This document shows, in pieces, positions 322 through 40,469 of a stretch of DNA of 45,450 nt (position 1 is the stretch's first letter; each line of letters opens with the position of its first letter). This DNA comes from an uncultured archaeon (GTDB taxonomy: Archaea; Asgardarchaeota; Hermodarchaeia; Hermodarchaeales; Hermodarchaeaceae), in contig CAYFXC010000007.1 in NCBI GenBank assembly GCA_964347045.1, positions 87,953 through 133,402 of the forward strand, in the 5' to 3' direction. Under the pieces are notes generated by a model. The model had not been told where the DNA came from. It worked only from the letters and a program-made list of their open reading frames with translations, and did no database searches. The position numbers and the translations under genes are program-made.

Positions 322-696
322 ATGTCGGCTACAGCGAAGAATCTTCAAGCGCTCCTTCGCCAAATGGAGAGTACGACACCTGGCATCGAAGCAAGTGCTA
401 TTGTTACAGCACAGGGTCTTCCTATTGTCGCAGCAATGCCACAGACAATAAATGAAGCTATTGTGGCAGCAATGACCGCAGCGCTTTTAGGCGTAGCTGA
501 GCGGGCTTTGACAGAGATTCCCCGTGGAAAACTCTTACAGATTACTGTTGAGGCTGAAAATGGGTATATCATTTTAAAAGGCGCAGGTGAAAACGCGATT
601 CTCACAGCATTGGTCAAAAAAAGTGCAAATCTAGGAATGATTTTCTTGGTCATGAAACGGTATAGCAGCCAAATAGAATCTATCCTACAGTTATAG
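322..696 (+). CDS. Roadblock/LC7 (MglB-like) domain protein
   Basis: GIEASAIVTAQGLPI...AAMTAALLGVAERA...LLQITVEAENGYIIL...ILTALV pattern; 124 aa. Confidence 0.9.
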   Translation: MSATAKNLQALLRQMESTTPGIEASAIVTAQGLPIVAAMPQTINEAIVAAMTAALLGVAERALTEIPRGKLLQITVEAENGYIILKGAGENAILTALVKKSANLGMIFLVMKRYSSQIESILQL

Positions 697-761
697 ATTG
701 ATTTAGTGCCGTCTTGTCGTTAATTTTCTTTGAGCAAAAGAGTGGTAGGCTTGGGAAAGGT

Positions 762-833
762 GGCGGCTCTAGTCCGCCCGTCGTTCACTTCATCTTTATA
801 TCAGTGACATCAGGTTTCCTCTTCATTGCCGCC
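762..833 (-). ncRNA. Candidate box C/D methylation-guide sRNA
   Basis: Minus strand reads GGCGGC-A-ATGAAGA(C)-GGAAACCTGATGTCA-CTGA(D')-TATAAAG-ATGAAGT(C')-GAACGACGGGCGGA-CTAGA(D-like)-GCCGCC; 6-bp terminal stem; guide complementary to rRNA CCGCCCGUC. Confidence 0.75.
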
Positions 834-855
834 GATGTTAAAGAAAGATGGGGCG

Positions 856-1464
856 TTACTTAAGGGTTGTGAGCATTGGCTCGATATGCTTTTGGATTTG
901 GCTCTGTACTTCTTTAATAGAACCTTCAGCGTCTATTATCTTAAACCCATTTTCCTGTGCTCTTTCGATAAAGATTTGGCGCACTTTTTCAAGAAAAGCT
1001 ACGTGCTCAAATTTTTCCTTTGGTTTTGGTCGCCTTTTTCGACTTAGGGCGATTGTGGGGGAAATGTCAAGAAGGAGCGTAATGTTTGGAGTGAGTGCAT
1101 AACGATTTAAATTCTGCACCCATTCGCGATCAAGTCCTGAAGAACATTGATACGCAAAAGAGGATTCAACGTAGCGGTCACTTATGACAATTTTTCCTTG
1201 GTCAAGGGCAGGCTGAATTTTGTTCAAAGTATTATCAATACGATCAGCAGCAAATAGCAAAGCGTCGATGGCAGGGGGTACAGTAGTGTCTCGTAAAATT
1301 TCACGAATTAGACGCCCAATTCTTTCATCCGTGGGCTCATGTGTCTCAACAACAGCTATCCCTTTTTTTCTGAGCCATTTGCTCAACAATTTGGTATGCG
1401 TGGTCGTTCCACTACCATCAATTCCTTCAATTGCGATGAAAAGTCCTTGTTGCATTAAGTGCAC
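856..1464 (-). CDS. tmk: Thymidylate (dTMP) kinase
   Basis: FIAIEGIDGSGTTT P-loop, HEP, LLFAADR, ISDRY, AYQ motifs. Confidence 0.95.
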   Translation of the reverse strand: MHLMQQGLFIAIEGIDGSGTTTHTKLLSKWLRKKGIAVVETHEPTDERIGRLIREILRDTTVPPAIDALLFAADRIDNTLNKIQPALDQGKIVISDRYVESSFAYQCSSGLDREWVQNLNRYALTPNITLLLDISPTIALSRKRRPKPKEKFEHVAFLEKVRQIFIERAQENGFKIIDAEGSIKEVQSQIQKHIEPMLTTLK

Positions 1465-1526: not shown

Positions 1527-2063
1527 ATGATGGTGAATTCTCTAGCTATGAATGTAAAGCCAATATTCGCTTCTTCCATCTTTTCAATTTCGTCAGATTT
1601 AGAAGTGTATCAGGTAATCAATTATGACTACAGCGATCCAGACGGCGTATATAAGAGAATTCTAGAAGATGAAGAGGCTTTTCAATTTGAATTGGATAAA
1701 ATTTATTCGAATATGGTCGAATTTCTTGACGCCGAAAGGGTGTACATCAACGAAAAACGTGTTAAACAGAAAATTATCCATGTAGATATTGGTTTACGCG
1801 GAAGCCCTGAAACCCCGTATTTCCAATGGGTAATCCATTTTCAAGGAATTCCTCGAAAGGATGAAAATTCTCTTGCAAGCGATGTTCAGGAAGAACAAGC
1901 GGAATACGCCATAGAAGTGCTATATCTTTTTCCTGAAAGAACAAAAATTCTGGATGTTGAAACTCCTATGGAATATGAAATCCGTGGGTCCCTTCTTTTT
2001 GTTTGGGCACAAGAAGGAGATGTTGTGGGAGGGCATGAGATAGTTCGGTTCCATTTACCTTAA
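1527..2063 (+). CDS. Hypothetical acidic archaeal protein
   Basis: 178-aa ORF filling the space between tmk and the next gene; no recognised catalytic motif; start could be the ATG at 1548. Confidence 0.65.
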   Translation: MMVNSLAMNVKPIFASSIFSISSDLEVYQVINYDYSDPDGVYKRILEDEEAFQFELDKIYSNMVEFLDAERVYINEKRVKQKIIHVDIGLRGSPETPYFQWVIHFQGIPRKDENSLASDVQEEQAEYAIEVLYLFPERTKILDVETPMEYEIRGSLLFVWAQEGDVVGGHEIVRFHLP

Positions 2064-2974
2064 CTTTCAAGTAGTCGCCCGCAAGAATAACACCATTTTG
2101 CATTTAGAGTTATTTTGGCTTGGCAATAGGGACAGGTTTCAGAACGGGGTTTTCCAGTAATCCTTTTTTCCGTTGAGGGAAGAGCAGATTCTTTGATAGG
2201 AATTTTTGGAGGATATGCAGCGCTGCCTAGAATTGCACGAAGCCCCGCGATGATGCTTGTTAGTCTGTTGAGTTCGTCATCAATTACCTTAAGCTGTTTC
2301 TTCACATCCCGTTTAGAAACTTCGTCAATACGCGCACGGATTTGTAGCGTCTCTTTATCAAATTCCAATTTTTGTTTGCGATTTTCTAAGAGTGCTAGCC
2401 AATTGTTGGCTAACGAAGTTTCAATATCAACGTACTGATTGATTTCGGTTAGTTTGCTTCCGTATTCGCTAGAAAGGCGCTGATAAATCGCATCATCAAC
2501 TTCTCCGGATTTCCGAAGGTCCTCGAGCCGTTGTAGGCGACCTTCTTGGATTTTCTTTTCCTGTTGAAATTTTTCTAGAGGTGTAATAGCCTTGGCTTCT
2601 AAATCCTCAATCTCTTTTGCTATAGGATTTAATCGTTCCTGCAGTTTATCTGATTGGGCCTTTGCTTCACCTTCTAATAACTCACCCACAAGTTGTTTGA
2701 CTTTTATTGTTTCCAGTTCTTCATCGAGAGCTGCTTTTTGAGATCGTAGCAGTTCGAGCTTACCTCGCATGATCAAAGCGGCCTCAACAGCAGGTGGGAT
2801 CTCTTCAACCTCTTTGGCAGGTTCTTTCTTTGGAACGGGTGTGTCAATAATAGGTTGAACATGAGCAGTTGCCACTTTAGTTTGCCGAGAGCTCAGGGAA
2901 ACTCCACAATATGAACAAAACTTTGCATTAGGTTTCAACTTTCGTCCACATTCAGGACAGGGTTGGTTTGACAT
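2060..2974 (-). CDS. Coiled-coil, CdvA-like protein flanked by N- and C-terminal zinc ribbons
   Basis: CPECG...FCSYCG at the N-terminus, CPYCQ...WCYSCG at the C-terminus; helical core with repeated KQLVGEL / RKSGEVDDAIY / RARIDEVS motifs. Confidence 0.7.
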   Translation of the reverse strand: MSNQPCPECGRKLKPNAKFCSYCGVSLSSRQTKVATAHVQPIIDTPVPKKEPAKEVEEIPPAVEAALIMRGKLELLRSQKAALDEELETIKVKQLVGELLEGEAKAQSDKLQERLNPIAKEIEDLEAKAITPLEKFQQEKKIQEGRLQRLEDLRKSGEVDDAIYQRLSSEYGSKLTEINQYVDIETSLANNWLALLENRKQKLEFDKETLQIRARIDEVSKRDVKKQLKVIDDELNRLTSIIAGLRAILGSAAYPPKIPIKESALPSTEKRITGKPRSETCPYCQAKITLNAKWCYSCGRLLES

Positions 2975-4472: not shown

Positions 4473-4970
4473 ATGAGACAATTTCTCTATGCAGACCCTA
4501 CAGTATGTGTTGGTTGTCGTATTTGTGAGGCAATTTGTAGTTTGCATTGGGAAAAAACAATCAACCCAAAGAAATCGCGAAATCGTGTTCGTCGGGTCGA
4601 TCCAGGGCTTGATGTTGTGGTGGCTTGTCGGAATTGCGACCAAGCATGGTGTATTGAAGCTTGTCCTGAAGAAGCACTGCGTAAAAATCGTAAGGGTATT
4701 GTAATAATTGATACAAAGAAATGCAGGGGCTGTGGGGCGTGTGTTGAGGCATGTCCTTTTGGAGCTATTTTTCTTCATCCGGATTCGCAAAAAGCCATCA
4801 AATGTGTCACGTGTGGATTTTGTACAAAATATTGCCCCGTAGAGACATTGCGCATTTTAACTGATGAGGAATTAGCCGCAATAAAGCAACAGAAAGTGAT
4901 TCAACACGAATGTGGCGATCTCCTTGATGAACTTAGAGTGGAAGAAGAATATAAGACGGGGGAACCATGA
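4473..4970 (+). CDS. Multi-[4Fe-4S] ferredoxin-type subunit (AOR small subunit)
   Basis: CVGCRICEAIC, CRNC....CIEACP, CRGCGACVEACP, KCVTCGFCTKYCP; ATGA overlap with the AOR gene. Confidence 0.9.
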   Translation: MRQFLYADPTVCVGCRICEAICSLHWEKTINPKKSRNRVRRVDPGLDVVVACRNCDQAWCIEACPEEALRKNRKGIVIIDTKKCRGCGACVEACPFGAIFLHPDSQKAIKCVTCGFCTKYCPVETLRILTDEELAAIKQQKVIQHECGDLLDELRVEEEYKTGEP

Positions 4971-6892
4971 TGGCAAAGCGGTCAAAGCTCGGTGGATATG
5001 CTGGACAACATTTGCACGTTAATATGACAAAAGGAACTTGTAAGCCTATTCCAATTGAGAAAGAGTTCGCTCTCATGTATCTTGGAGGGCAAGGATTTGC
5101 TTCACGAATAATGTATGACCGAGTCGGACCTAAAACTGACCCACTAGGTCCTGAAAATATTCTAATTTGGGCAACCGGACCTTTCACAGGAACTTTATGG
5201 CCTCAGGCATCACGTTATGTTGTTGCAGCAAAATCTCCTCTAACCGGTATATTTGGTGAAGCGCATTCTGCGGGTCATTGGGGACCTGAACTGAAATTTT
5301 CTGGATTCGATACAATAGTTATAACAGGAAGAGCGAAGACTCCCAGATATTTATTCATTGACGACGGTTCTGCTAAATTGCTTGATGCCAGTGATTTATG
5401 GGGTCGCAACACAACCAAAACTGAAGAATTAATAAAAGAAATTCATTCTGATCGAAATCTCCGCGTCTCTTGCATTGGACCAGCAGGTGAAAACCTTGTT
5501 CGTTTTGCTGCAATCATCAATGACTATGATCGTGCAGCAGCACGCTCAGGAATAGGCGCTGTTGCAGGAAGTAAACAGCTAAAAGCGGTAGCCGTTCGTG
5601 GAGGACAGGATATTCCCATCGCTAAACCTAAGCGTTACCTTGAGGTCGTCGAGGAATTACACCAAAAAATGCTGGAGAGCCCTTTTACAGCTAATCGAGC
5701 AATGTATGGTACGACAAATTTAGTTGAAATGATGCAAGAAATTGGGCGTCTTCCTAGCTATAATTTGCGTTCAGGTGTATTTGCAGAATATGAGAAAATC
5801 AGTGGTGAAGCCATAAAAAAGGATTATCTGGTTAAACCACGAGCAGATTATGCTTGTTTACAACGTTGTGGTAGATATACTAGGGTCAAAACAGGACCGT
5901 ATGCCTATTGTGGTGGAGCCCCTGAGTATGAAACGCAAGCAGCCATTGGGAGTCGATGTGGTAACGATAACCTTGAATCCATACTTTATGCGCATCATCT
6001 CAGTAACTTATATGGAATGGATACAATCTCAACTGGAGCTACAATTAGTTGGGCAATGGAAGCTTGGGATGAGGGACTTATTACCGCTGAAGACACCGGT
6101 GGAATAGACCTAAGCTGGGGTAACCACGAGTCAATCATTAAACTTATTCACATGATTGCTAAGCGAGAAGGGTTTGGTGATATATTAGCAGAGGGTAGTT
6201 ATCGGGCAGCACAGCGTATCGGAAGAGGTACTGAAAAATTTGTCATGCACAGCAAGAAACAGGAAATTGCAGGTCAAGAACCTCGTGCTCAGAAATCAAT
6301 GGGATTAGCAACTGCAACAGCCGCGCGAGGTGCTGATCATCTATATGCCTTTCCCGTTCTTGATGAAGTTGGATTTGATAAAGAAATTGAAATTCGTTAT
6401 GGAACAAAATATCTTCCTGAGATTGGAGATCGCCTTGACCCAAAATATAAAGGCTTCATGGTGAAAGAAAATGAGGACTTTTGCGCGGTTGTTGAATCTT
6501 TAGGAGTCTGTAAATATGGCACATTAATACCTCCCGTTCTATTCTATGAAGACATTGTGAAGGCTTTTGATGTCACCGTTGGAATCTCAATAACTGAAAA
6601 ACAAATACGCGCAATTGGTGAAAGGATTGTTAACCTAAACCGCTGTTTCAATGTTCGTGAAGGAATTCGTCGAAAGGACGATTCACTACCTCGTCGGCTT
6701 ACTCACACGCCTGCCCCTGAAGGTCCATCAAAAGGTCAAGTTGTCGAATTGAACCAAATGCTAGATGAATATTATGAATTAAGACATTGGCGGTTAGAAG
6801 ATGGATTACCCACCAAACATGTTTTACATCGATTGGGTCTTGACGATTTAATTATCGACCTTGAAAAACATGGTGTAGAATTACCTGAATAA
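4967..6892 (+). CDS. Tungsten-dependent aldehyde:ferredoxin oxidoreductase family protein (copy 1)
   Basis: YLGGQG, KSPLTG, IGPAGEN, GSKQLKAV, PEYET, GMDTIS, RGADHL, LDEYY..R.W motifs. Confidence 0.95.
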   Translation: MMAKRSKLGGYAGQHLHVNMTKGTCKPIPIEKEFALMYLGGQGFASRIMYDRVGPKTDPLGPENILIWATGPFTGTLWPQASRYVVAAKSPLTGIFGEAHSAGHWGPELKFSGFDTIVITGRAKTPRYLFIDDGSAKLLDASDLWGRNTTKTEELIKEIHSDRNLRVSCIGPAGENLVRFAAIINDYDRAAARSGIGAVAGSKQLKAVAVRGGQDIPIAKPKRYLEVVEELHQKMLESPFTANRAMYGTTNLVEMMQEIGRLPSYNLRSGVFAEYEKISGEAIKKDYLVKPRADYACLQRCGRYTRVKTGPYAYCGGAPEYETQAAIGSRCGNDNLESILYAHHLSNLYGMDTISTGATISWAMEAWDEGLITAEDTGGIDLSWGNHESIIKLIHMIAKREGFGDILAEGSYRAAQRIGRGTEKFVMHSKKQEIAGQEPRAQKSMGLATATAARGADHLYAFPVLDEVGFDKEIEIRYGTKYLPEIGDRLDPKYKGFMVKENEDFCAVVESLGVCKYGTLIPPVLFYEDIVKAFDVTVGISITEKQIRAIGERIVNLNRCFNVREGIRRKDDSLPRRLTHTPAPEGPSKGQVVELNQMLDEYYELRHWRLEDGLPTKHVLHRLGLDDLIIDLEKHGVELPE

Positions 6893-40357: not shown

Positions 40358-40469
40358 GCCGGGATAGCCAAGCGGTTACGGCGCGGGCCTTGAGAGATGC
40401 AAATTAGTATCATCCAAGGTAGCCTGTGACCTTTGGGTCGCAAGGGTTCGAATCCCTTTCCCGGCGCCA
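40358..40469 (+). tRNA. tRNA-Ser(TGA) with a 26-nt canonical (37/38) intron at 40395-40420 and encoded CCA
   Basis: Acceptor GCCGGGA/TCCCGGC, discriminator G, anticodon stem CGGGC/GCCTG, TGA at 40391-40393, long variable arm, GTTCGAATC T-loop; BHB motif: CTTG/CAAG helix with AGA and GTA bulges. Confidence 0.93.

Follow-up and report, generated by a model that had tools for sequence, protein, structure and literature searches.

In Escherichia coli, the m4Cm1402 of 16S rRNA is made by two enzymes, RsmH and RsmI (PMC2794176, PMC11542601). The same nucleotide corresponds to Cm1639 in yeast, which is assigned to the guide RNA snR70, to Cm1703 in human and to Cm1645 in Arabidopsis, the last assigned to U43 (PMC2794176, PMC11542601), and these two sources bear out the parallels with RsmI, snR70 and SNORD43 that were drawn at C1402 when the element described below was originally predicted. 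Within the archaea, Cm1369 of Pyrococcus abyssi 16S rRNA has been listed as the equivalent of E. coli Cm1402 (PMC11542601, Table 2), and helix-44 predictions are sparse in seven other archaea (Dennis et al. 2015, PMC4644070). P. abyssi is a euryarchaeal thermophile and not a member of the Asgard archaea. A C/D guide is to be expected behind its Cm1369, as reportedly described by Gaspin et al. in 2000. In the literature searched, no description of Asgard C/D sRNAs was found.

In box C/D sRNAs, the methylated nucleotide is the one that pairs with the guide five positions upstream of where box D starts (N+5; PMC6009581). The genes of archaeal sRNAs are commonly located at the 3' end of protein genes, and co-transcription followed by trimming has been described for many of them (PMC6009581). 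Here we analysed a DNA window of 45,450 nucleotides (the whole stretch under study), in which a box C/D sRNA directed at the equivalent of C1402 had been predicted just downstream of the thymidylate kinase gene tmk. The host had been taken for a probable Asgard archaeon, and the nearest relatives of its tmk indeed belong to Candidatus Hermodarchaeota / Promethearchaeota, in the NCBI kingdom Promethearchaeati.

Results

The box C/D sRNA gene is 72 nt long and occupies positions 833..762 of the window, on the minus strand (Table 1). The sequence reads exactly as in the original prediction with regard to coordinates, to the C, D', C' and D-like boxes in the correct order and to the terminal stem GGCGGC/GCCGCC. 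From 5' to 3', the RNA is composed of GGCGGC-A-AUGAAGA-GGAAACCUGAUGUCA-CUGA-UAUAAAG-AUGAAGU-GAACGACGGGCGGA-CUAGA-GCCGCC. Six of the seven positions of the C box fit RUGAUGA, and the C' box takes the form AUGAUGG or AUGAGGU in a second group of the genus. The D box has the GA needed for the sheared pairs and is either 5 nt long or a 4-nt UAGA. The box order, the stem, the two spacers and the D-adjacent guide with its N+5 position are shared with the archaeal box C/D sRNAs of Pyrococcus, Sulfolobus and Pyrobaculum, as are the location 3' of a gene and the presence of genes for fibrillarin, Nop5 and L7Ae. The element differs from these sRNAs in its spacers, which measure 15 nt from C to D' and 14 nt from C' to D in place of the ~12 nt typical of thermophiles, in the A or G at position 5 of the C box and in the extra A of the D box.

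Table 1. Features of the sRNA locus, in window coordinates.
Feature	Position	Strand	Basis or remark
Whole box C/D sRNA gene	762..833	-	Sequence; single covariance-model match per genome; conservation falls sharply at both ends
Terminal stem, 5' half, GGCGGC	828..833	-	Pairs with 762-767
C box AUGAAGA (consensus RUGAUGA; position 5 = A)	820..826	-	Invariant in close group
D' spacer / orphan guide GGAAACCUGAUGUCA, 15 nt	805..819	-	D'-proximal half variable among near-identical species
D' box CUGA	801..804	-	CACUGAU invariant in close group
D'-C' loop UAUAAAG	794..800	-	Most variable segment, 69% identity in close group
C' box AUGAAGU	787..793	-	Invariant in close group
D spacer GAACGACGGGCGGA	773..786	-	Guide core CGACGGGCGG = 783..774
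Atypical D box CUAGA	768..772	-	CUGA with inserted A, or UAGA preceded by C
Terminal stem, 3' half, GCCGCC	762..767	-	Pairs with 828..833
Thymidylate kinase (tmk) gene, directly upstream of sRNA	856..1464	-	PF02223, E 3e-52

Homologues were sought by BLAST and then with a covariance model (R1) in the family, which comprises 19 genomes of Hermodarchaeota-type Asgard MAGs, and exactly one copy was found in 17 of them; a covariance-model search of related genomes had been put forward as a check on the original prediction, and its outcome agrees with it. Seven distinct sequences make up a close group, in which identity over the whole element is 94%. Within this group the terminal stem, the C and C' boxes, the D guide and the D box are 100% identical, the D' spacer is 85% identical and the loop 69%, such variability being expected of the linker of a K-loop. 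The 40-nt flanks are 49% and 36% identical, and conservation begins and ends exactly at the terminal stem. A second model (R2), built from diverged members, recovered homologues in about 12 further Asgard families, one per genome. Of the sequences parsed, 12 of 13 from the genus and three of four from the sister genus have the guide core CGACGGGCGG unchanged, the genomes G012 and G018 carrying an A at its last position, and spacers of 12 nt occur in the homologues of g2, f2, f7, f9 and f13. Every homologue from outside the genus has CUGA or CCGA as its D box; CUAGA (eight genomes) and CCAGA (five genomes) are confined to the genus itself, so that the D box was rightly called atypical. On this pattern of sequence conservation the element is a conserved gene and not a chance motif.

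The pairing of the terminal stem (6 bp) was analysed in an alignment of 15 sequences. Standard pairs were found in 94.2% of cells, against 80.3% in shuffles, with none of 500 shuffles reaching as high a value, and in slid controls, in which the partner was moved by 1-3 columns, 27-49% of cells were paired. Both sides have changed in five of the six pairs. The stem is GGCGGC/GCUGCU or GGCAGC/GCUGCU in the sister genus, and more distant variants include AUAGGC/GCCU.. in f2 and ACACGA/UUGUGU in f13. The G.U pairs of the sister genus can form only in an RNA read from the minus strand. Position 5 of the C box, normally U, covaries with position 2 of the D box (A-U in six cases, G-C in five and G.U in three). 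Judged by its anatomy, its conservation pattern and this covariation, the element is a genuine box C/D sRNA.

The position just downstream of tmk was also confirmed, the stop of this 202-aa ORF (1464..856, minus strand, PF02223) lying 22 nt before the start of the sRNA. On the other side, a Roadblock/LC7 gene (322..696, plus strand) is convergent to the sRNA. The Roadblock/LC7 gene adjoins the sRNA in the genus, the sister genus and family f2, and tmk adjoins it in the genus, f3 and f2, being inverted in f2; the retention of both neighbours as far as f2 supports the orthology of the homologues. No AT-rich or TATA-like box was seen at promoter distance upstream of the stem on reading the sequence, and in most species a short T-rich tract follows the 3' half of the stem. 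The lack of a promoter-like box, together with this tract, suggests that the sRNA is transcribed along with tmk and then trimmed back to its stem.

Elsewhere in the window, a tRNA match at 40358-40466 (plus strand) extends over 109 nt against a model of 71 positions, and this tRNA gene probably contains an intron. A 304-aa ORF at 2060-2974 (minus strand) carries zinc-ribbon-like motifs (CxxC...CxxC) at each end, and its long middle part, rich in E, K and L, is probably a coiled-coil.

The source genome encodes the proteins of a C/D RNP, namely fibrillarin (PF01269, 304 bits), whose gene is adjacent to that of Nop5 (PF01798, 228 bits) on contig C1, and L7Ae (PF01248, 96 bits). Neither RsmI (TIGR00096) nor RsmH (PF01795) was found in this genome, which is 88.9% complete. 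A regular-expression scan of the genome for further C/D sRNAs returned three candidates only, the pattern being too strict to inform, and a scan for 10-mers complementary to rRNA was too noisy to read.

Another box C/D sRNA, with a terminal stem of 10 bp, was observed outside the window on contig C1 of the same genome (G000:C1:48075-48150, L109). Its D guide is AAGGAUCUUGAGUG, and its D' guide, ACCUGACCCU(C), is complementary to 23S rRNA just upstream of the sarcin-ricin loop. This sRNA is conserved in 14 of 18 family genomes, with a D' box that reads UAGA, ACGA, AAGA or UGGA. A second CUAGA in another sRNA of the genome was considered as a recurrence of the 5-nt box and rejected, as relatives show a degenerate 4-nt NNGA D' box.

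The D spacer contains GACGGGCGG, the reverse complement of CCGCCCGUC, which lies at positions 1400-1408 of the 1543-nt 16S copy of E. coli CFT073 used for numbering, or 1399-1407 when counted on the standard 1542-nt sequence. This offset of one position agrees with the nucleotides that textbooks give for E. coli 16S rRNA, namely G1405, U1406, C1407 and A1408. Searches of the source genome (2.58 Mb in 83 contigs, 88.9% complete) for SSU and LSU rRNA found none assembled, so the target was read from the rRNA of relatives, the search covering the 16S of nine Asgard genomes. All nine 16S genes (L021-L030) read CCGCCCGUCG, corresponding to E. coli 1399-1408, and with each of them the guide core CGACGGGCGG forms a perfect duplex of 10 bp. 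The exact complementarity to the conserved 1399-1407 segment, as originally predicted, holds and in fact extends by one pair: the duplex is of 10 and not 9 bp because Asgard 16S carries G1408 (nine of nine genes), where E. coli has A, and the 5'-most C of the guide pairs there. Eukaryotic 18S rRNA likewise has G at the position equivalent to 1408. The bases flanking the guide core are unpaired with 16S in every lineage, so that pairing stops at exactly 10 bp, which is, according to structural work, the maximum guide duplex accommodated in archaeal C/D RNPs.

In the relatives' rRNA available, no other comparable match of the D guide was found save one at the apex of helix 44 in G008. Here GUCCGCUCGUCGU (L030:1244-1256) forms 13 bp, with one G.U, with the D guide ACGACGGGCGGAC of the group to which the window belongs. 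This match is longer than that at the decoding site and is specific to G008, whose 16S is the only one assembled in the close group; G006 differs there, and the site lies in a stable helix. It could be due to chance or represent a second target.

Several of the relatives' 16S genes have insertions. In the genus and the sister genus, about 30-32 nt are inserted between E. coli 1397 and 1399, directly 5' of the target, at L030:1170-1201 in G008, L027 reverse ~4880-4908 in G006 and L024 reverse ~2868-2896 in G016 of the sister genus. The canonical GCACAC followed by ACCGCCCGUCG is replaced in these genes by GCACACA, the insert, and GUGUAR followed by ACCGCCCGUCG, and in G029, of another family, GUGUAG and not GCACAC stands directly 5' of ACCGCCCGUCG. 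The insertion may be a mini-intron; three folds, one of them on the correct strand, gave no clear bulge-helix-bulge motif. A further insertion is found in helix 45 beside the GGGGAA dimethyl-adenosine loop, with about 95 nt in G008 (L030:1331-1425) and about 32 nt in G006 (L027 reverse ~5036-5070). In G006, G004 and G015 the 16S matches are broken into pieces or drawn out over 3.6 kb, a sign that these genes may hold several further insertions or introns.

The half of the D' spacer that adjoins the D' box, and in which N+5 would fall, reads GAUGUCA, GAUCUCA, GAUCGCA, AUAGUCA or GAUCACA in near-identical species, and the D' spacer of the second group of the genus is unrelated. No target of at least 9 bp that was free of several G.U pairs was found for this guide in the 16S and 23S rRNA of G006, G008, G016 and G019 or among the 19 tRNAs of the source genome, in agreement with the original failure to assign a target to the second guide. 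Matches of 8-9 bp or rich in G.U, among them one of 8 bp in the spacer downstream of 16S, were rejected as chance. Going by its sequence, the D' half is probably an orphan, or a structural spacer with no target. Also downstream of 16S, in G008, the region L030:1860-1900 (GUGACGAUGAGGAAGCC...) has C-box-like words, and GUACUCAGGU within it is complementary over 10 bp to the D' spacer of the sister genus; this region may hold another small RNA, or the match may be due to chance.

Rfam gave no match at the element at gathering thresholds. With relaxed settings (E up to 10, 650..950), the matches spanning the element were weak and all to C/D families (sR43, sn2429, sR17 and snoU54). The SNORD43 and snR70 models gave no match at E up to 10 over 650..950, nor in 13 homologues at E up to 5. 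Pyrococcus sR1 (RF01152) was considered and set aside, as the homologues reached 16-31 bits against a threshold of 45; the boxes and the GGC/GCC ends match and the guide differs.

The original prediction had left the methylated nucleotide ambiguous between two counts, both of which were reproduced here. Counting five from the C of CUAGA leads to the guide G at window position 777, which is paired with C1402, and counting from UAGA leads to G1401. The ambiguity is real within this genus, whereas outside it 31 homologues were parsed, from the sister genus and 11 families (12 lineages), and 30 of them have C1402 at N+5. Many of these homologues have a spacer of 12 nt and pair at guide positions 2-11 or 3-11. 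In the one exception, G067, an extra spacer nucleotide shifts the count to G1401. The genus member G012 also has one extra spacer nucleotide and is off register under either reading of its box, at G1401 or C1400. Given the sequences of G012 and G067, the register is not absolutely fixed. The Y of CYAGA was found to change together with position 5 of the C box, A occurring with U in one group and G with C in the other.

Discussion

We consider it highly probable, from these sequence comparisons, that positions 833..762 of the window encode a box C/D sRNA, and C1402 is the nucleotide whose 2'-O-methylation it would most likely guide. The view originally taken of it, as a C/D guide counterpart at the C1402 equivalent, finds support in the anatomy, the covariation, the 10-bp target and the register. 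For transcription, RNP assembly and methylation we infer the following steps. The sRNA would be transcribed with, or just behind, tmk, and its C/D and C'/D' motifs would fold into a K-turn and a K-loop, to be bound by L7Ae, Nop5 and fibrillarin. The D guide CGACGGGCGG would pair with 16S 1399-1408 in the pre-ribosome, and fibrillarin would 2'-O-methylate the nucleotide facing position five of the guide, the P-site cytidine C1402 being the most likely one. The D' half would act as a structural spacer without a target.

The choice of nucleotide depends on how the odd D box is read. With the extra A taken as an insertion within the box, the count does not shift and leads to C1402, whereas a K-turn built on UAGA or CAGA would direct the methylation to G1401. 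In the latter case the RNA would be the same C/D sRNA, working through a 4-nt D box (UAGA, or CAGA in the second group) and methylating G1401, an outcome that we think possible but less likely. A bulge that separates the sheared G.A pairs from position 3n is not a normal feature of K-turns, and CYAGA read without a bulge gives a YAGA box, a bulge beside the sheared G.A pairs being unorthodox. Boxes of the UAGA type do occur, as the degenerate 4-nt NNGA D' boxes of the second sRNA (G000:C1:48075-48150) demonstrate, and the one-nucleotide departures of G067 and G012 also lean towards G1401. However, the homologues with ordinary boxes, from about 12 families, keep the C1402 register in all cases but one, and the covariation of Y with the C box is what would be expected if Y is still position 2 of the D box and an A has been inserted. 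To our knowledge, moreover, Gm1401 is not a known conserved modification. With the continuity of the register in other families and the covariation of Y with the C box both pointing the same way, C1402 is favoured with reasonable, though not high, confidence.

Two readings would dispense with guided methylation as the main function, and both appear improbable, the second more so than the first. The RNA could serve mainly as a folding chaperone for the 16S 1399-1408 strand, with methylation secondary or absent. Such a role would suit a conserved 10-nt complement whose spacing from the D box shifts by 1-2 nt in G012 and G067, and the 16S insertion between 1397 and 1399, beside the target, in the genus and sister genus could be cited for it. 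However, f2 has the sRNA and a 16S without the insertion, the boxes and the methyltransferase genes are intact, and a register kept in 30 of 31 homologues would be needless for a pure chaperone. Alternatively, the element might not be a guide at all and might act within the 3'-UTR of tmk, as a terminator hairpin or as a regulatory K-turn bound by L7Ae, or it might belong to the plus-strand ORF 714..863. It begins 22 nt past the tmk stop and lacks a suitably spaced TATA-like box of its own, and the plus-strand ORF, of 49 aa, does overlap it. Against a 3'-UTR element stands f2, where tmk is inverted and the RNA is still kept, and the stem encloses 60 nt, hence it is no terminator. A coding function fits poorly with substitutions that cluster in the loop and the D' spacer and not at third codon positions, and with G.U pairs that fit the minus strand only. 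Neither the 3'-UTR nor the ORF accounts for the invariant 10-nt complement to rRNA. A box C/D guide, by comparison, is the reading we retain.

As judged from the sequence, C/D-RNA-guided ribose methylation of C1402 is indicated for the Asgard archaea, at a nucleotide for which bacteria use RsmI and eukaryotes snR70/U43. The bacterial enzyme 2'-O-methylates the same nucleotide but is a stand-alone protein. The snR70, SNORD43 (U43) and Arabidopsis U43 RNAs are C/D guides for the same nucleotide, and the present sRNA resembles them in function only; since any guide has to fit its target, a shared guide sequence would not prove common descent with snR70/U43. P. abyssi is an archaeon listed with a ribose methylation at the same decoding-site cytidine, Cm1369, and the likeness to it is one of site. 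What the present data add is a pan-Asgard spread and an unusual D box, the site having already been listed for Pyrococcus, and for that reason none of these findings should surprise a specialist. They would fit the view that the eukaryotic route to C1402 methylation was already in place in the archaeal lineage, and they add to the Asgard genomes an unannotated ncRNA gene family that is absent from Rfam. With its inserted A, the D box of this one genus offers a natural test case for what sets the N+5 ruler. A bolder proposal, to which we would give little credence at present, is that the pan-Asgard sRNA is the orthologous forerunner of eukaryotic U43/snR70 and that, in the Hermodarchaeota-type genus, a D box of 5 nt with its A bulged out is tolerated and still sets C1402 as the target. 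If this were true, the Cm1402 guide would belong to the very small number of single guide-RNA genes that eukaryotes received from their archaeal ancestor.
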